Origin: a virus
DNA: 64,000 nucleotides
Reading direction: 5' to 3' (one strand)
Virus record (IMG/VR): IMGVR_UViG_3300008448_000014
Coordinates: 1-64,000 of that record
Shown here piece by piece: positions 1 to 53,658 of the stretch. The notes below the pieces were generated by a model. It worked only from the letters and a program-made list of their open reading frames with translations, was not told the DNA's origin and made no database searches. The position numbers and the translations under genes were made by a program. Numbering within the stretch: position 1 is the stretch's first letter; each line of letters begins with the position of its first letter.

Positions 1-1974
1 CTTATATTTGATGGTAAATCAAGAGGACTTGGAGAACAATTTCTTAGAAATATATCAATGGATGAGAATGAAGCTGGATATGGACAAACAAATCCTATTA
101 CAGGTGAATTAATTAATTCTGTTCCTAAATATTTTATAAATGATTTAGGTGAAGGATATTCTACAGACTTATTTAAAACAATGGTTTTATATAATGAGTA
201 TGCTATTAAGTTTAAAAATCTAACTGATATTGAAGAAAGAAGTTTACAATTATTAAGAATTGAAAGAAATAAAAAATCTATAATGACTTCTACATTTGGT
301 TCTTTACTAAAAGAAGGAGATGATTTAAAATTTAATCCTAACAATTTAGAAAACTCTAAGCTTTTAGAAGATATGATTAAATCTGTTGTATATCAACAAA
401 AGTATGTTCAAAGTGAAGTGTTTGATATGGCTCTTGGAAAAATATCTGGATTTGGTAAAAATCTTAATGAAAAATTAGGAATGAAAATATTTCCAGAAGA
501 TTTAGAAGAAAGACAATTATCAGCAAATAAATTTTTAGACGCATTAAATACACAGTTTCAAATAACTACATTAGGACTAAATCCTTTATCTGCTATTTCT
601 AACTTATTTGGAGGTACTGCAAATGGTTTAATTAATGCTGGTAAGTATTTTACAAAACTAGATTTTTTGAAAACACAAATGTGGTTTCTTACAAATAAAA
701 TGACAGGTGGAGAAGATAGACAAAAAGCACTAGCTGCTCTTGATTATTTTGTTCCTTTTGTTGAAAGTTATAATAAAAATGCTGCAAGAAAACTTTCATT
801 GAATAAATTGGATGAACAAGGTGTACAGGATTTTTTAATGTTTTTAATGCGTAATGGGGATGAAGCTATACAAGCATTAAACTTTTATACATTTTTAAAA
901 AATACAATTGTTGAAGATGGTAAAATAGTTAATGTTAGAGAATATTTAAGAAGCACTGATGAATACAAAGCTTTTTATTCTGGTACACAAGAAGAAAGAA
1001 AGACAAGATCTGATAAGTTTGAAAAAGATGTACAAGAATTATTAGATAGTAAAGGAGTATTAAAACTTGGAGAAGTTGTAGATGGAGAATTTGTTATTCC
1101 TGGTGTAGATAAAAAATCTGATTCAGTTATAGAACTTAGAAGACTTGTACAAAGTTTTACTGCAGATGCTCTTGGTTCTATGAGTGAAGAGAATAGAAGA
1201 CTTATAAATATGAATGTTTATACATCTTCTATAATGGTATTTAAAAACTGGATTCCTAGACTTGTTGATATGCGTATTGGGGATATAAAATATAATGCTG
1301 CTTCAGATGCTTATGAGTGGGGTAGAATAAGAATGATATTTAATATATTAGGAACAGATACATTAAAATCTATAAAAAGTTTACAAGCTGCAATTGGTGG
1401 TAACAATGATGTATGGTTGGAACAAGTTAGATCATTATATGAAAGAAAACAAGCAGAGTATAAAGCTAGTACAAATAAAGATCTTGAAATGACTGAAGAT
1501 GAGTTTATAGCTCTTGTAAATCAAAACATTAAAAACCAAACAGTAGACTTAGTTATTTTGTTAGGATTAATATCTTTATTAGCAGGTTTAAAAGCTGCTG
1601 CTCCTGATGATGATGAAGATGTTCTTGTTAGAAATCAATATAAGTTTCTTCTTAAAGCAACTGATAAACTAACAGATGAGCTTATGTATTTTTATAAGCC
1701 TACAACTCCTATTGATTTAATTGGAGGTAAAGGTGGTATATTTCCATCTATAGGTTTATTAAATAATTATAAAAAGTTTTTTACAAATTTTCTTTCTGAA
1801 AACTATGGTATAATAACTGATGATGAAAAAATGCAGGATGATGCTAAACCTATTAAATATTTAATGAAATCATTCCCTATATCAAGTCAAGCTGCTGGTT
1901 ATCTTCCAATGTTTTACCCAGAACTAGCAAAAGATCTAGGTATAAAAGTCCAATCTACTTATGGTGTAAGATAA
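1..1974 (+). CDS. C-terminal part of a giant crAss-like virion/cargo protein (5'-partial)
   Basis: Frame 1 is open from base 1, so the gene starts upstream of the window. Large helical protein directly before the lysis cassette; function inferred from position. Confidence 0.55.
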   Translation, partial: LIFDGKSRGLGEQFLRNISMDENEAGYGQTNPITGELINSVPKYFINDLGEGYSTDLFKTMVLYNEYAIKFKNLTDIEERSLQLLRIERNKKSIMTSTFGSLLKEGDDLKFNPNNLENSKLLEDMIKSVVYQQKYVQSEVFDMALGKISGFGKNLNEKLGMKIFPEDLEERQLSANKFLDALNTQFQITTLGLNPLSAISNLFGGTANGLINAGKYFTKLDFLKTQMWFLTNKMTGGEDRQKALAALDYFVPFVESYNKNAARKLSLNKLDEQGVQDFLMFLMRNGDEAIQALNFYTFLKNTIVEDGKIVNVREYLRSTDEYKAFYSGTQEERKTRSDKFEKDVQELLDSKGVLKLGEVVDGEFVIPGVDKKSDSVIELRRLVQSFTADALGSMSEENRRLINMNVYTSSIMVFKNWIPRLVDMRIGDIKYNAASDAYEWGRIRMIFNILGTDTLKSIKSLQAAIGGNNDVWLEQVRSLYERKQAEYKASTNKDLEMTEDEFIALVNQNIKNQTVDLVILLGLISLLAGLKAAAPDDDEDVLVRNQYKFLLKATDKLTDELMYFYKPTTPIDLIGGKGGIFPSIGLLNNYKKFFTNFLSENYGIITDDEKMQDDAKPIKYLMKSFPISSQAAGYLPMFYPELAKDLGIKVQSTYGVR

Positions 1975-2644: not shown

Positions 2645-3248
2645 AATTAGTTATTTAATAATAATAGTTTTAGTTATTATTATTCTAATACAAAGATCTT
2701 GTACAGGACCATCTATTATAAATAATGATCCTCAGATATCTGTAAAAATAGATACAGTATATAAATATATTACTGACACTATTACTAAAACTGTAAAGTT
2801 AAAATCAGTTGTTTATGTAAAACCAGATGGTCCTCAATACTATCCAGGTGAGACTATTGATACATGTAAACAAAGATTCCAAAACTTATTAAAAGAACAT
2901 ATTGCTAAGAAAGTATATAAAGACACTTTAAAACTAGATAGTCTTGGAACTATAACAGTTATAGATACAGTGTGGATTAATAAATTATATGGTAAGAGAA
3001 CATATATACAAGATATTAAAATACCAACTGTTACAAAAACAGTTACAATTACTAAAACAGAAGATCCTAAAAGACAATTATATATAGGAGGTAATTTGTT
3101 TGGAGATAAATCACAATTACAATTAGTAACTCCAGGGATTCTATATAAAACTAAAAAAGACCATATATATCAAGTTAACCTAGGAGTAAATTTTGATGGT
3201 TCTATTACATATGGATTAGGACTATATTATAAAATCAAACTAAAATAA
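2622..3248 (+). CDS. spanin-like membrane-anchored protein
   Basis: N-terminal TM, DTV/DTI-rich stalk, C-terminal amphipathic beta strands (YGLGLYYKI), next to the endolysin. Confidence 0.55.
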   Translation: MLLKNKNKISYLIIIVLVIIILIQRSCTGPSIINNDPQISVKIDTVYKYITDTITKTVKLKSVVYVKPDGPQYYPGETIDTCKQRFQNLLKEHIAKKVYKDTLKLDSLGTITVIDTVWINKLYGKRTYIQDIKIPTVTKTVTITKTEDPKRQLYIGGNLFGDKSQLQLVTPGILYKTKKDHIYQVNLGVNFDGSITYGLGLYYKIKLK

Positions 3249-3254
3249 TAACCA

Positions 3255-3674
3255 ATGGTAACAAGTGCACAATGTTTAAAAAAATATGGTGATCCTACAA
3301 AAGAATCTAACATGATTTTATGGGATGTACCAACTGAATTAGAAATAGGAGTTATACCTAAAAGATTATATTGTAATAAAGACTTAATTGCTCCACTTAC
3401 AAAAGCATTTAAAAATCTTATAGATACAGGATTTGTAAAAGAATTAAAAACCTGGGATGGATGTTTCAATATCAGAAAGAAAAGAGGTTTAAAAAGCATG
3501 TCATTACATTCATGGGGAATTGCCATTGATGTAAATGCTGCATGGAATGGATTAGGGAAAACTCCACAACTATCTGCAGGATTTGTAAAATGTTTTACAG
3601 ATGCTGGGTTTGATTGGGGTGGAAATTGGACAAATAGACCTGACGGAATGCATTTTCAACTAAATAAAATATAA
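3255..3674 (+). CDS. endolysin, M15 family peptidase
   Basis: SLHSWGIAIDVN (SxHxxGxAxD) and DGMHFQ motifs. Confidence 0.9.
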   Translation: MVTSAQCLKKYGDPTKESNMILWDVPTELEIGVIPKRLYCNKDLIAPLTKAFKNLIDTGFVKELKTWDGCFNIRKKRGLKSMSLHSWGIAIDVNAAWNGLGKTPQLSAGFVKCFTDAGFDWGGNWTNRPDGMHFQLNKI

Positions 3675-3811: not shown

Positions 3812-4113
3812 TGGAAATCATATTTCAAGGTAATGTAGCAACAGATGGTAGTACAAAAATAACTTGTACATCTACTTCTATGGTTGTAAATGAAATTATT
3901 ATAAATAATATAGATAATAATTACAATATTACTATGAATAGGTTTATGACAGGAGAAGGAATACACCTTATACCTATATATGAATTTGCTTTAGATCTTG
4001 GAGATACAGTAAGAGACACTGAAGGATACACACTAAATCAAGGTAATTTTTTACAACTAATAACTAATGTAATAGGTACAACTTATTATATTAGTGCAAC
4101 AGAAACAGACTAA
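3811..4113 (+). CDS. small beta-rich structural protein
   Basis: Coupled ORF upstream of the fibre gene. Confidence 0.45.
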   Translation: MEIIFQGNVATDGSTKITCTSTSMVVNEIIINNIDNNYNITMNRFMTGEGIHLIPIYEFALDLGDTVRDTEGYTLNQGNFLQLITNVIGTTYYISATETD

Positions 4114-5274
4114 ATGTTACAGATATATAATAAATATGGACAGTTAAAAGTTGTTTCTTCTACATCAAGCACTGGTGTATCTTCTGTTTCAGGAGTTTCT
4201 CCTATCACCTCTACAGGAGGAACAAATCCTATTATTAGTACATTGGTAACTCCTAATAAATTATTAGGAAGATATAGTGCTAGCACTGGACCAATGCAAG
4301 AAATTATAATTGGAAGTGGATTATCTTTAGTTGGTAACACTCTTACCTCTACAAGTGCTGTTACACCAAACGCATTAACAAAAGTTGATGATACTAATGT
4401 TACATTAACATTGGGAGGAAATCCATCAACAGCTTTATTACAAAATGTGTCATTAACATTAGGATGGACAGGGACTTTAGCAGATAGTAGAATAACATCA
4501 GCTAGTACATGGAATGCTAAACAAGATGCAATTTCTTTAACTACATTAGGAACTTCAGGTCCAGCTACATTTATTTCTAATGTATTAAATATTCCACAAT
4601 ATACAGAGGTTTTTACTGGAACAGTTACATCTGTAGCAGCATTGACATTAGGTACTACAGGTACAGATTTATCATCAAGTGTTGTAAATAGTACAACAAC
4701 TCCTGTAATAACTTTAAATGTTCCTACAGCTAGTGCTACAAACAGAGGAGCTTTAAGTAGTACAGATTGGACTATATTTAACAATAAGCAAAATAATTTA
4801 GGCTATACGCCACCTCAAACTTGGTACAGGGGATTAGATGGTGTTACTGTTGCAAATACTCTAACAATTACTCCAACTTATACTCAATTAATACCAGCTA
4901 ATACATTTGCATCTGGTGATGTAGTTGAATTATTATTTAGAAGTACAGCACCTGGAGCTAAAACATCAGCTTCAAGTATTTATGTCTACATAAACACTAC
5001 TAACAATTTGAGTGGAACTCCAATTCAAGTTGGTATTTTAACAGGTGGTGCAACAACAAGAACTATTCAAATAGAAAGAGCTTTAGCTATAAAAGGAGCA
5101 ACAACAAGAGTTATAAATTCAGCTGGTACAACTGCAACTGATACTGGAATAAGTGCCGCAATGTCAACACTTACGATTGATTGGACAGTAAACCAATTCT
5201 TTGTCTTTGCAATAGGACATACAGTTGCTGACCAAACACTAACAGGAGATTTTTACAGAATAACAAAAAATTAA
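4114..5274 (+). CDS. tail/head fibre protein
   Basis: Thr/Ser/Gly-rich fibre repeats (GTVTSV, WNAKQD, FNNKQ) and a beta-rich C-terminal domain. Confidence 0.7.
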   Translation: MLQIYNKYGQLKVVSSTSSTGVSSVSGVSPITSTGGTNPIISTLVTPNKLLGRYSASTGPMQEIIIGSGLSLVGNTLTSTSAVTPNALTKVDDTNVTLTLGGNPSTALLQNVSLTLGWTGTLADSRITSASTWNAKQDAISLTTLGTSGPATFISNVLNIPQYTEVFTGTVTSVAALTLGTTGTDLSSSVVNSTTTPVITLNVPTASATNRGALSSTDWTIFNNKQNNLGYTPPQTWYRGLDGVTVANTLTITPTYTQLIPANTFASGDVVELLFRSTAPGAKTSASSIYVYINTTNNLSGTPIQVGILTGGATTRTIQIERALAIKGATTRVINSAGTTATDTGISAAMSTLTIDWTVNQFFVFAIGHTVADQTLTGDFYRITKN

Positions 5275-45211: not shown

Positions 45212-47242
45212 TCACTTTGCATCATACCAAGAATTTCCATAATGTGCGTCTGCCTTGATTTTTAATGTTTGTAAATAATGGTTTCCACCTTCAATCATAG
45301 CTTCTTCAACTTTAGTTCTAGCTAATTCTGCTAAATCTACAGGACATTCTATTACTAATTCATCATGTACAGAATTACATATTTTAATTATATTAATATA
45401 ATTATTATCAACTATCCAATCAAAAAGTATTAAAGCACTTCTCTTAATCATCATGGCACTTCTGGCTTGAACAGGGTTGTTAAGGCATAAACGTTGGTAT
45501 TCAGATTTAAGTTTAAAAAATTGACTCACTTCTGTTTTCTTTGACTTATAATATGTCACAGCTTTAGGAAATATATATGTATATTCATTTCCTTTTTCTT
45601 TCTCATCAAACTTCTTTTTATAATCTAATTTACCTTGTTTATATAACTGCCATTGTTCTTTAGTTATAGCCTCAACTTTACCTTTGTATTCATTAAACTT
45701 ATCAAACTTTGGTAGAGCTAGTTTCCAACCATCTGCAGATTCTATATATCCTTGCTTAACAGCTTTATTGAATTCTTCTGCTCCCCATGTATACAATCCT
45801 TCATGAAGTTCTTTAAAAGCATCTTCAATTCTATATGCTTGTACTAATGGTATTCCTTCATTTTGATGAATAGTATATGCAGAACCACCATATTGAAATG
45901 CAAACCTTGGACTCTTTGCTGCTTGTCTTTTAGATTTATGTTCTTTAATGATTGTTTCATCATCAAGTTCTTCTAATTCTGGATATAAAACTCTAGCAAA
46001 AGCACAATGCAAATCATCTCCATTAACTACAGAAGATGTCATTGCAGCATCTCCAGATAAATCTGCAGCTACAACAGTTTCTTGACCACTATAATCACAA
46101 ACAATAATTACATTACCTTTATTAGCTTTAAAACACTTTCTTGTAATACTATCAGAAGGAAAATTTAAAAAGTTTATATTTCCTTTTCTAGTAGATAGTC
46201 TAGCTGTATCAACCATAGGATTAAAGTTAGTGTATATACGTTCATTCTCTATTTGCTTGTATATACTTTCTCCAAAGGTTGTAACTCTATGATTAGCTTC
46301 TTGAAAACTAAGCCACATATCAACAAAATCATGTTTAGATTTCTTTATAATGTTTTCTCCAATACTATCTTTACCATCTTTATCCTTTGTAGGGATACCA
46401 AAAGCATTAAAGACTTTAAGCATTTGTGATGGTGAATTAATAGATACATGTATTCTTTTCTTTGTGTCAAACATATCTATTTGTCCATCTGCAAATTGTG
46501 GAAGATTATCATATATATACTCTTCAATTATAGTTTTCCATTTGAATGTATTTTCTATGTCTTCAACCATTTTATCTTTCCATGATTTAGAGCTAATAGG
46601 AAGCCCACATTGCTCAATATATGCTAAAGCTCTAATATATCTACAATGAAGATTATATGTCTCTGTAAAGCCTCTTTTATTGATTTTAAGCATTAATGCA
46701 TCATGTAACTCAATAAGTCTATCAACATCATTAAATGAATACTCAATTGTACTCTGTTGGCTTAATTTAACTATATGAATATTCTTTTGGTCTGTTTTGT
46801 CATATATAACATCAAGTTCTCTTTCCATCACTTTACCAAAATCATGTCTATAAGGCATAAAGTCTTTATCAACTTGTCCATTATATATAATCTTACTAGC
46901 AAGCATTGTATCTCTAACATCTTTAGGATAGAATCCATACTTATAACAAAACCCTACATCAAATAATGCATTATGAAATATTAATGTCTTGCTCTCTATA
47001 TAAGGAACCAAATCACTAAACTTATAACTATTTTCTCCACTAGTATATAAGTCTATAATATAATTGTTTTTTCCTGTTCCAATTTGTACACAAAATATAT
47101 CACAATGTCTTGGTTGAAGTCCACTAGTTTCTGTGTCTATTCCTATAATATCAGGTAAAATTAAATCAGTTAAATCACAGTAATTATACTTACCAATTTT
47201 TTCAAAATATTTTTTATTTTTAGTTATAATAAAATTTGCCAT
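45212..47242 (-). CDS. polA: DNA polymerase family A with 3'-5' exonuclease
   Basis: DTETSG, HNALFD, TARLS, DYSGQE, RQAAK...YG, NNPVQ, VHDE. Confidence 0.95.
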   Translation of the reverse strand: MANFIITKNKKYFEKIGKYNYCDLTDLILPDIIGIDTETSGLQPRHCDIFCVQIGTGKNNYIIDLYTSGENSYKFSDLVPYIESKTLIFHNALFDVGFCYKYGFYPKDVRDTMLASKIIYNGQVDKDFMPYRHDFGKVMERELDVIYDKTDQKNIHIVKLSQQSTIEYSFNDVDRLIELHDALMLKINKRGFTETYNLHCRYIRALAYIEQCGLPISSKSWKDKMVEDIENTFKWKTIIEEYIYDNLPQFADGQIDMFDTKKRIHVSINSPSQMLKVFNAFGIPTKDKDGKDSIGENIIKKSKHDFVDMWLSFQEANHRVTTFGESIYKQIENERIYTNFNPMVDTARLSTRKGNINFLNFPSDSITRKCFKANKGNVIIVCDYSGQETVVAADLSGDAAMTSSVVNGDDLHCAFARVLYPELEELDDETIIKEHKSKRQAAKSPRFAFQYGGSAYTIHQNEGIPLVQAYRIEDAFKELHEGLYTWGAEEFNKAVKQGYIESADGWKLALPKFDKFNEYKGKVEAITKEQWQLYKQGKLDYKKKFDEKEKGNEYTYIFPKAVTYYKSKKTEVSQFFKLKSEYQRLCLNNPVQARSAMMIKRSALILFDWIVDNNYINIIKICNSVHDELVIECPVDLAELARTKVEEAMIEGGNHYLQTLKIKADAHYGNSWYDAK

Positions 47243-48003
47243 TATTTGTTTCTTTTTACTTTTTTAAAGAATAATCCTTTATAAGATTTGTTATTTTTAA
47301 TTGCTCTAAATATATTTTGATAAGATACTATTTTATTTTTTAAATACTTTTTATTAAATTTTTTAGCATTAATATTGTAAAACTCAATATAATCAGGAAT
47401 TGGTAAATCATTTTCTTTTGTTCTAGAAAATCTATCTATTTCCAAAGTATTATCAAATCTTCTAAAAAAGTTCATATTAATATCATACACTTCTATGTCA
47501 TCAAACATATTTTTTCTAGCATCAGAAATGTTATTACATACTAAACCTTTATTCCAAGAAGGTTTACCTTTTTTAATATTAGATAAATGTTGCCTGTAAT
47601 TTTCATTATTTTTATATCTTTCCTTTAATGTATCACTTATTTTTTTCTTTACATCACTATTACAAGGAGGTTGAGTAGTAACATCACTTATATTGTATCC
47701 ATTTTTAATACTATTAAAAAAGTTTATATAAAAAGATTCTTTTTCTCTTATAAAAGGTATATTATTATTTTCTAATATTTCTATTACAGAAAATTCAAAA
47801 TTTTCTATACCATGTTTTAAAACAGAATTATTTAAATAACTATTATGATGGTTACCTGTCTTAAGTTTTCTTACATGTTCAGTATATCTTCTTTTAAAAG
47901 TCATTTTTGTTGACCCAATGTAAACTTTATTATTTAATAAGTTTTTTATCATATAAACTCCTGAAAGTTTAAATGTTTCTAAATTTGGTATTGCTATTTT
48001 CAT
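47242..48003 (-). CDS. GIY-YIG homing endonuclease
   Basis: SGVYMI...KVYIGST...RY.EH...GYN. Confidence 0.9.
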   Translation of the reverse strand: MKIAIPNLETFKLSGVYMIKNLLNNKVYIGSTKMTFKRRYTEHVRKLKTGNHHNSYLNNSVLKHGIENFEFSVIEILENNNIPFIREKESFYINFFNSIKNGYNISDVTTQPPCNSDVKKKISDTLKERYKNNENYRQHLSNIKKGKPSWNKGLVCNNISDARKNMFDDIEVYDINMNFFRRFDNTLEIDRFSRTKENDLPIPDYIEFYNINAKKFNKKYLKNKIVSYQNIFRAIKNNKSYKGLFFKKVKRNK

Positions 48004-52169: not shown

Positions 52170-52460
52170 GGTTTTTTAAATTTAATTTCTAATGATTCCA
52201 TTATTTCATTAAAATCTTTTTGTTTTAATGTTTTAGGTTTGTTAATATATAATACATGTGTAGAATTTCCTTCTTCACTAATAAAAGATACAATACCTGT
52301 TTCTTTTTTTAATAGCACTCTTTTAGTTTCTTGTAATAAACTCATAATTTATTTTTAAATGTATTTAATAATATTTTGTTAATAATTGGTACTATTAAAA
52401 AACATATTATAATAGCTAAACTTAATCCTTGATTTTCCATAATTTAAACTTTTTAAAAAG

Positions 52461-52482
52461 AAAAAGCCCTATTTCTAGGGCT
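52461..52482 (-). terminator. intrinsic terminator
   Basis: AGCCCTA/TAGGGCT stem with a T-run on minus strand. Confidence 0.7.
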
Positions 52483-52670
52483 AATTCAAGAATTAATAAC
52501 CTAATTGTTCTAAAGATAACTTATCAGCTGTCACCTCGTATACTCCTTTTGTTATTTTACAATCAAACCAAATTTTAAATTCATTTGCTTTTTGTTTAAA
52601 CTGATAAAAAGCTGTGGGTTGCATTTTAATTTTTTTCATGTGTTCTATGTTTAATTTGTGATTAAGTGTT

Positions 52671-52706
52671 AAAAAATCCCTACACACTTGAGACATGTGT
52701 AGGGAA
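52671..52706 (-). terminator. strong intrinsic terminator closing the candidate ncRNA
   Basis: TCCCTACACA-loop-TGTGTAGGGA-TTTTTT on minus strand. Confidence 0.85.
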
Positions 52707-53300
52707 ATGGTAAAATTTTACATTCAAAGAATGCAAGCCTCATATGTATGAGCACTTATCAGTTAGTTGTGTATAAGTTAATCAAACCAATGATTACTAT
52801 TTTAGCACCTTCTTTCTTATATAAACTGCCTATTATGGTACCTAAATATAAGAGTAAGGTCACGTAGTTTATTGTAATAAGAAGTAAATGTTTCATTACA
52901 TCCCAATAGAACTACTTGCTGAGAACTCATTACGTGAGTGTGGAGCCATTCATTATCCACCATAACTAGCACTTTCCTTTCTCAAGGGAACTCACGTTCT
53001 AGGATTACTCCTTGCTACTCTATAGGGTTCTTATGGTTTCCTATTTCACATCTCTCTGGCAATTCAGGATTAGTATCTTTATGTAAATAACAACTTCATA
53101 GATGCTACGTTAACTGTAGAGAAGTTTAATCATCATTTTTATTTACAAACCATCAATGTTTAGGGCTAACTTCTATCAGATTATCAGTTCTGACGCTTTA
53201 CACAGCTTAGCTATTGTTTGAGAGTTTTTCATTACAACTCACAAGTGTTGACTTTTCTTCAGTCACCAATAGCACCCATTTAACCTTGGGTACACCAGGA
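52707..53300 (-). ncRNA. candidate large structured non-coding RNA (~600 nt), family unassigned
   Basis: No ORF >=60 aa inside it, visibly more G/C than the flanks, many nested helices with GNRA loops, followed by a terminator. Confidence 0.7.
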
Positions 53301-53304
53301 TTTA

Positions 53305-53658
53305 TTATTCTTCTAACAAAGCAGCTTGTTTTCTTAAGAAATCTAGCTTAGCATTGTGTAATTCAAGAGCTTCTTCAGCATCAACTAATTTGTTTTGAGC
53401 TAATAATAAATTAGAAATATAATAATTTCTATCAGTGATTAAATTACCATTGTTTAATCTAGCAAGTCTTAATGACTCTTTTGCTTCTTCTACAGCATCT
53501 TCTAAAGATATAGTATCTCCTGTTAATGATGCAATTTGTGTTTTGAAAGCTGAATCAGCTTGTCTTAAGATTTTTTGTGCTGTTGCTTCTGCATCATCTC
53601 CTTTAAGTAAACAAACAATTTCTGTTACAAATGATTTTACAATTTTTTTAGTTGTCAT
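53305..53658 (-). CDS. coiled-coil hypothetical protein
   Basis: Heptad-rich ORF just upstream of the candidate ncRNA. Confidence 0.6.
   Translation of the reverse strand: MTTKKIVKSFVTEIVCLLKGDDAEATAQKILRQADSAFKTQIASLTGDTISLEDAVEEAKESLRLARLNNGNLITDRNYYISNLLLAQNKLVDAEEALELHNAKLDFLRKQAALLEE

Follow-up and report, generated by a model that had tools for sequence, protein, structure and literature searches.

We conclude that a gene-free region of about 630 bases (53305-52671, minus strand) is very likely a phage non-coding RNA gene that is read with or just behind a 117-codon gene, is built as a chain of modules, ends at its own terminator, and has at its core an RNA of an uncatalogued family; there are no transcript data for this phage itself. 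Coordinates are those of the window, the whole 64,000-nucleotide stretch of DNA that was analysed, which covers the first 64 kb of an IMG/VR phage record, complete at 113,909 bp and bearing terminal repeats. An earlier note, made from the sequence alone, had proposed a single structured RNA of about 600 nt and allowed that its class might be undescribed. The reading as a large structured phage RNA is supported, given that Rfam is empty at this locus and relatives covary strongly, and a core of 365 nt is structured. The idea of one 600-nt RNA does not hold, as the region is a chain of separately conserved RNA modules.

The region starts after the stop codon of the 117-codon gene and closes at an intrinsic terminator. 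Each of the six frames of 52671-53305 contains 12-32 stops, the longest open run is 54 codons, and G+C is 0.33-0.36 inside the RNA region compared to about 0.25-0.29 in the flanks, which bears out the earlier description of an ORF-free gap richer in G/C than its surroundings. The terminator, also noted earlier, was recovered in a terminator search at 52671..52705 on the minus strand (stem 52705-52677, then T6); it has U6 and an 11-bp stem rather than the 10 bp originally counted. Three terminator-like sites were observed compared to 0.4 expected. Folded as a single sequence, the region is only modestly more stable than its shuffles (z = -2.4, with 1 of 20 shuffles equally good), and the case for an RNA therefore rests on comparison with relatives. 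The RNA element is present once in the complete 113.9-kb genome. The nearest relatives of this phage's DNA polymerase, at about 30% identity, are from crAss-like phages and one cyanophage. A GIY-YIG homing-endonuclease gene (47242-48003, minus strand) lies directly upstream of the DNA polymerase I gene (45212-47242).

The core RNA occupies 52802..53166 on the minus strand (365 nt) and comprises P1 with its loop L1, helices P2-P6, the junction J4/7, P7, P8 and a GCUAA tail. Another 78 distinct members align with it, and the 79 full-length members parsed, including the copy in the window, range from 254 to 504 nt. An invariant 21-mer of the core occurs in 100 stretches of IMG/VR viral DNA among the matches listed, and a second, independent anchor in P4-P5 occurs in at least 120 such stretches. 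Across bacteria and archaea, represented by one genome for each of 185,579 species, the same 21-mer was found in only two contigs, both from metagenome bins. The core family is almost confined to phage DNA, namely hundreds of uncultured genomes and one cultured marine phage. Among cultured phages, blastn matched the core to Cellulophaga phage phi14:2 only, and matched a flanking 48-nt module (see below) to Flavobacterium elemo phages only, over a 49-nt piece that directly precedes an annotated tRNA. Based on these two kinds of carrier, the hosts of the core family appear to be Bacteroidota. Member lengths are spread evenly over the three classes modulo 3, as is one of two internal spans checked, which is expected for non-coding sequence.

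The conserved blocks of the family are found in order at 53162-52802 of the window: the L1 loop UAAACAUUGA, UAAAGAUA in J2/3, UGAGAA in the P5 loop, the J4/7 21-mer, CGUGACC, and the tail G(G/A)GGUGCUAA. The J4/7 21-mer and the L1 loop match the family exactly. Member collection relied on two conserved motifs, so the apparent invariance of both is inflated; J4/7 is nearly invariant also in samples gathered via other anchors.

Structure was tested with a 30-sequence MAFFT alignment and anchor-based parsing of the 79 members. Covariation among homologues, by which the earlier note had proposed to judge its candidate, is extensive: both sides change at 25 of 40 pairs, and standard pairs fill 96.2% of cells compared to 80.9% in shuffles, none of which (0 of 500) reaches the observed level. 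Sliding the partners by 1-3 columns as a control lowers pairing to 33-49%, and RNAalifold agrees with the covariation result. U-G and G-U pairs are frequent, for example in 17 of 30 sequences at one P3 pair; because these would be A-C mismatches on the other strand, they fix the RNA to the minus strand. The window itself pairs at P2-P5, P7 and P8 in the MAFFT alignment, with variant pairs in P4 and P8. When all columns of the 79 members were scanned against each other for new long-range pairs, only the known helices emerged.

At the 5' end of the core, anchor parsing places the P1 hairpin at 53149..53166 (minus strand), with a GCC/GGU stem and the near-invariant loop UAAACAUUGA at 53153-53162. 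P1 and P2 align poorly in MAFFT, and it is the anchor parsing that reveals many different complementary stems; those of P1 include AGG/CCU, AGC/GCU, GUCG/CGAC, CUC/GAG and others around a constant loop. P2 with its variable insert spans 53082..53147 on the minus strand (53139-53147 pairs with 53082-53090), and 4 of its 7 pairs change on both sides; it is optional, since other members differ in P2 sequence or lack the helix. P3 is supported by covariation in the relatives. In most members it is a simple GNRA-capped hairpin, with both-sided changes at 6 of 6 pairs, and in the window (52999..53073, minus strand) it is a branched arm with a GUAA tetraloop at its tip, a form found also in L014, L025 and L051.

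The next covarying unit, at 52932..52997 on the minus strand, is P4 (52990-52997 with 52932-52939), which encloses P5 and a variable P6. All 7 P4 pairs change on both sides, and the helix reads CGUGAG/CUCACG in the window compared to GUGUUG/CAACAC in most members. P5 (52975-52989, minus strand), in which 5 of 6 pairs change on both sides, carries UGAGAA in its loop at 52979-52984. P7 and P8, with a variable insert in each, fill 52807..52918 on the minus strand (P7, 52910-52918 with 52861-52869; P8, 52846-52860 with 52807-52822); paired cells reach 98% in P7 and 97% in P8, and P8 reads CCUU/AAGG in the window compared to CCCU/AGGG in most members.

The junction J4/7 (52919..52931, minus strand) includes UUCUCA at 52920-52925, the complement of the P5 loop. 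A pseudoknot of 5-6 bp between UGAGAA and UUCUCA is plausible, although it remains an unproven candidate. The two motifs turn up again in a shorter RNA class. No compensatory changes between the P5 loop and J4/7 were found, apart from a single variant compatible with a G-U pair; with so little variation in either partner, the pairing is beyond the reach of covariation.

Many of the helices that the earlier note had read from the window alone are conserved or covary in relatives and have a place in this plan. UGUAAAUAA/UUAUUUACA is P2, AGGA-GUAA-UCCU is the GNRA-capped tip of P3, ACGUGAGU/ACUCACGU is P4, CUU-GAGA-AAG is P5, GUAGUU/AACUAC is P7, and ACCUU/AAGGU with UCUUAUAU/AUAUAAGA is P8; outside the core, GAGUU/AACUC forms the leader hairpin, UCAGA/UCUGA a hairpin of the 48-nt module, and CUCAUA/UAUGAG a hairpin of the 3' module. 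Its long-range pairings GCUAUUG/CAAUAGC and AUGGUUU/AAACCAU have to be given up, as they clash with conserved helices (the closing stem of the 48-nt module and P1) and no relative supports them, and GUACCCA/UGGGUGC and GACU/AGUC can be seen, but in the window only. A 5'/3' closing stem, present in the window only, was dropped after inspection.

The core does not correspond to a known RNA class. A scan of all 64 kb of the window against Rfam found no family at gathering score; covariance models for ROOL, GOLLD, HEARO, OLE and raiA gave no match at or near gathering score in the window, and RNase P RNA and group I and group II introns gave no Rfam match there. ARAGORN found no tRNA or tmRNA genes in the window or in the whole 113.9-kb genome. 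There is no split gene around the RNA, the flanks being the complete 117-codon gene and the terminator. The earlier impression that hallmarks of tRNA, tmRNA, RNase P and introns are absent thus agrees with the ARAGORN and Rfam scans. RNase P-like P4/CR-I motifs and a T-box-like 3' end were considered and dropped after inspection. The core family is a new class, absent from Rfam, among the large ornate phage RNAs without known function. It shares with ROOL (RF03087) and GOLLD (RF01998) a length of several hundred nucleotides, an elaborate fold, an association with phages, frequent proximity to tRNA genes and the lack of a known function. However, it is unrelated to either: the conserved motifs and helix plan are unlike theirs, no Rfam model matches, and only the setting, in phage DNA and sometimes beside tRNA genes, is common to them. 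ROOL and GOLLD come mostly from Firmicutes and their phages.

Other conserved modules flank the core. Immediately upstream is a 48-nt three-way junction (53167..53214, minus strand) in which a closing stem leads to two hairpins, one of 3 bp that is invariant and one of 4-5 bp that covaries and has an 8-nt loop. An exact 21-mer of this module occurs in 35 stretches of IMG/VR viral DNA, and in 14 of these loci the module is followed by the larger conserved core RNA, as in the window. In a set of 20 distinct copies, both-sided changes affect 6 of 12 pairs, and the closing stem and second hairpin covary. What follows the module may be the core RNA, a tRNA, a tmRNA leader or, where it stands alone, a terminator. 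Rfam searches of a stand-alone copy, and of a locus of the short RNA class mentioned below, returned nothing except flanking tRNAs, and an HDV, hammerhead or pistol fold for the module was dropped after inspection. Further copies lie at 1815-1900 (minus strand) of L186 and 3002-3049 of L001. The module stands alone just before the terminator in L186, L159, L229 and L030, and in L186 it overlaps the stop codon of an ORF. In Flavobacterium phage elemoA it is unannotated and adjoins an annotated tRNA-Ala. Just upstream of the module in the window is a leader hairpin (53216..53245, minus strand) with a 9-bp stem containing one U-U mismatch; at least six other loci (L053, L061, L067, L091, L121 and L129) have an almost identical hairpin ahead of either the core or the 48-nt module.

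Downstream of the core, a 3' module (52739..52796, minus strand) consists of a hairpin at 52779-52796, the motif UGAUAAGUG and a hairpin at 52739-52752. This module follows the core in 16 loci, and the stem of its second hairpin varies but stays complementary. In 9 of the 16 loci, not including the window, a tmRNA-like 5' end begins a few bases after it. UGAUAAGUG and its hairpin (52739-52762, minus strand) are kept in the window although the complete genome has no tmRNA, which suggests either loss of a tmRNA or a separate role for the motif.

The neighbourhood of the 79 members often includes tRNA or tmRNA genes. Directly upstream of the core, 16 members have the 48-nt module, 7 have the T-arm of a tRNA and 4 have the leader hairpin; on the downstream side, motif searches identified 10 members with a tmRNA 5' end, 8 with only the 3' module and 4 with a tRNA-like start, and ARAGORN placed a tmRNA within about 115 nt of the core in 12. 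Some loci have sharp ends, with a tRNA ending 0-3 nt before P1 or a tmRNA or tRNA starting 5-8 nt past the tail, and these abutting genes fix the ends of the RNA unit. This arrangement suggests, by inference, that the core is released by tRNA-processing nucleases. One relative, L006, has the order 48-nt module, core, 3' module, tmRNA and then a terminator nearly identical to the one in the window, and encodes a homologue of the window's 117-aa protein with 70% identity; the window therefore looks like the L006 unit minus its tmRNA. Clustering of neighbouring proteins in the 79 loci revealed no informative or consistently adjacent family. The most common neighbour, found in 23 of 79 loci, is an unannotated protein without a Pfam family. 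About two thirds of members have no adjacent tRNA or tmRNA, and the phage of the window has neither gene, so a role tied to phage tRNA or tmRNA genes cannot be general.

The only cultured carrier found is the Cellulophaga crAss-like phage phi14:2, whose core copy has the same conserved blocks and falls within the 686-nt gap that separates gp006 from gp010, at about 2907-3357 of KC821624. In the next gap, ARAGORN identified an unannotated tmRNA (4031-4500 of KC821624); the phage of the window has no tmRNA. The tag peptide of the phi14:2 tmRNA is GSSVQKLAMVA (3514-3983 of L142, which is KC821624 518-5790). In GenBank, gp007-gp009 are listed as three small hypothetical ORFs that overlap or adjoin the RNA gene (2589-2914 of L142) in antisense orientation, and this annotation can now be corrected, as these small proteins placed on the RNA gene are spurious. 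A search of the literature by topic and sequence motif found a single relevant paper, a preprint on phi14:2 (10.1101/2020.03.07.982082). Two long intergenic regions of phi14:2, at the g004-g005 and g005-g006 junctions, were reported to be transcribed rightward above most genes, and these transcripts appear early and persist while other early transcripts fall (10.1101/2020.03.07.982082). For the core family, this published RNA-seq is the sole source of expression data. The positions of the two transcripts fit the core RNA and the tmRNA, and the core copy probably lies within one of these abundant, stable transcripts; both assignments are inferred from gene order, not from the gene table. Drobysheva et al. 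leave the function of these transcripts open, and their account describes no sequence family, structure or function (10.1101/2020.03.07.982082).

The family, with its hundreds of phage members, has no entry in Rfam, and in phi14:2, which can be cultured on Cellulophaga baltica, its RNA probably ranks with the most abundant transcripts. Because phi14:2 is grown in the laboratory and the transcript is probably abundant, the function of the RNA is open to direct test. Few folded RNAs are both large and highly conserved, and where their function is known it has mostly proved fundamental, as in the ribosome, RNase P, tmRNA and introns. The findings also mean that phage tRNA regions hold further unrecognised RNA genes.

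We propose a model in which the core would fold into a compact body, with P3 bearing a GNRA cap and the P5 loop pairing with J4/7, and in which loop L1, J4/7 and the 3' tail, single strands that hardly vary, would form its working surface; all of these features are inferred. The flanking modules occupy the slots held by tRNA and tmRNA genes in relatives and so probably mark cleavage sites. Host tRNA-processing or other nucleases may cut at the module borders and free a stable core RNA, an inference for which the sites are unproven. Release of RNAs by tRNA-type punctuation is known from the tRNA-like handle of mascRNA/MALAT1 and from mitochondrial tRNA punctuation. The present loci are similar in that the core of relatives abuts a tRNA or tmRNA within 0-8 nt, so that cuts by RNase P or RNase Z would set its ends, and in that elsewhere the 48-nt module takes the slot of the upstream tRNA. 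They differ in that the 48-nt module has neither a T-arm nor a 7-bp acceptor stem and is not recognised as a tRNA by ARAGORN, and processing has not been shown. What the released RNA does is a guess: we tentatively favour action in trans, as a decoy or scaffold, on a conserved host tRNA, tmRNA or translation component, to which its invariant single strands would bind. A broader and more doubtful speculation is that Bacteroidota phages carry a toolkit of RNAs placed in tRNA slots, made up of the 48-nt junction, a short class of about 110 nt and the long class, the latter two built around the knot of P5 loop and UUCUCA. Matured by host tRNA-processing enzymes, these would counter a component of host translation, trans-translation or tRNA-targeting defence, serving as tRNA-like decoys or as a new ribozyme.

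An alternative that we regard as unlikely is that the core is itself a ribozyme, which would excise itself from its precursor or process tRNA or tmRNA precursors. Its near-invariant junctions inside covarying helices with variable peripheral inserts, its GNRA cap and its likely pseudoknot are as in large ribozymes, and the core often lies within tRNA or tmRNA arrays. However, protein-binding RNAs can have ribozyme-like conservation too, even a permissive scan matched none of the known ribozyme models, no signature of a cleavage site came to light, and the phage of the window has no tRNA or tmRNA to process. Also quite unlikely, in our view, is a self-assembling architectural RNA forming RNA-only multimers of the kind reported for ROOL and GOLLD, the subject of a cryo-EM preprint. 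The size and setting of the core in phage DNA, sometimes beside tRNAs, and the great abundance of the probable phi14:2 transcript would suit such a role, but neither its sequence nor any model match links it to ROOL or GOLLD, and inspection of the motifs revealed no self-complementary conserved loop for homomeric kissing.

There is little to recommend a cis-acting element of the neighbouring genes, whether it served the 117-codon gene as 3' UTR or stability element, formed the leader of the next gene, or provided an antitermination site. The RNA does directly follow the 117-codon gene with no recognised promoter found between them, a homologue of the 117-aa protein is encoded just upstream of the core in five loci, and the 48-nt module can overlap an ORF stop codon and precede a terminator. 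Against this, the core is found in many unrelated gene contexts, including directly between tRNA genes, a strong terminator separates the RNA from the next gene, and the intergenic RNAs of phi14:2 outlast other early transcripts (10.1101/2020.03.07.982082). Least credible of all is that the models missed a divergent representative of an established class (ROOL, GOLLD, group I or II intron, RNase P RNA or tmRNA), or that the region is a DNA-level element or an overlooked protein gene: covariance-model filters can overlook very divergent members and the region is AT-rich, but a permissive Rfam scan of 1.1 kb (52400-53500; E up to 10, lax filters) returned only chance-level snoRNA and sRNA hits of at most 21 bits, ARAGORN found nothing, no split host gene flanks the region, the strand-specific G-U pairs and compensatory changes favour an RNA, and every frame is closed.

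Relatives of the core were also observed in other arrangements. A shorter RNA class of about 100-120 nt has P4 and P5 in common with the long family and ends in a hairpin whose loop contains UUCUCA. This class, absent from Rfam, accounts for about half of 131 instances of the P4-P5 anchor. Its loci lie directly between phage tRNA genes, as in L259 (about 4580-4665), L245 (two copies), L243, L250 and L258. Judging from the sequences, RNAs with the P4-P5 anchor are often duplicated in tandem: it occurs twice, 230-570 nt apart (5.7 kb in L267), in L272, L274, L301, L308, L245 and L267. Many of the phage tRNA-like genes near these RNAs (in L259, L243, L250, L258 and other arrays) start with AGUCAGGUGGCG and contain inserts of 40-70 nt; several of the genes with this start are missed by ARAGORN, and one scores just 32 bits over 96 nt in Rfam.
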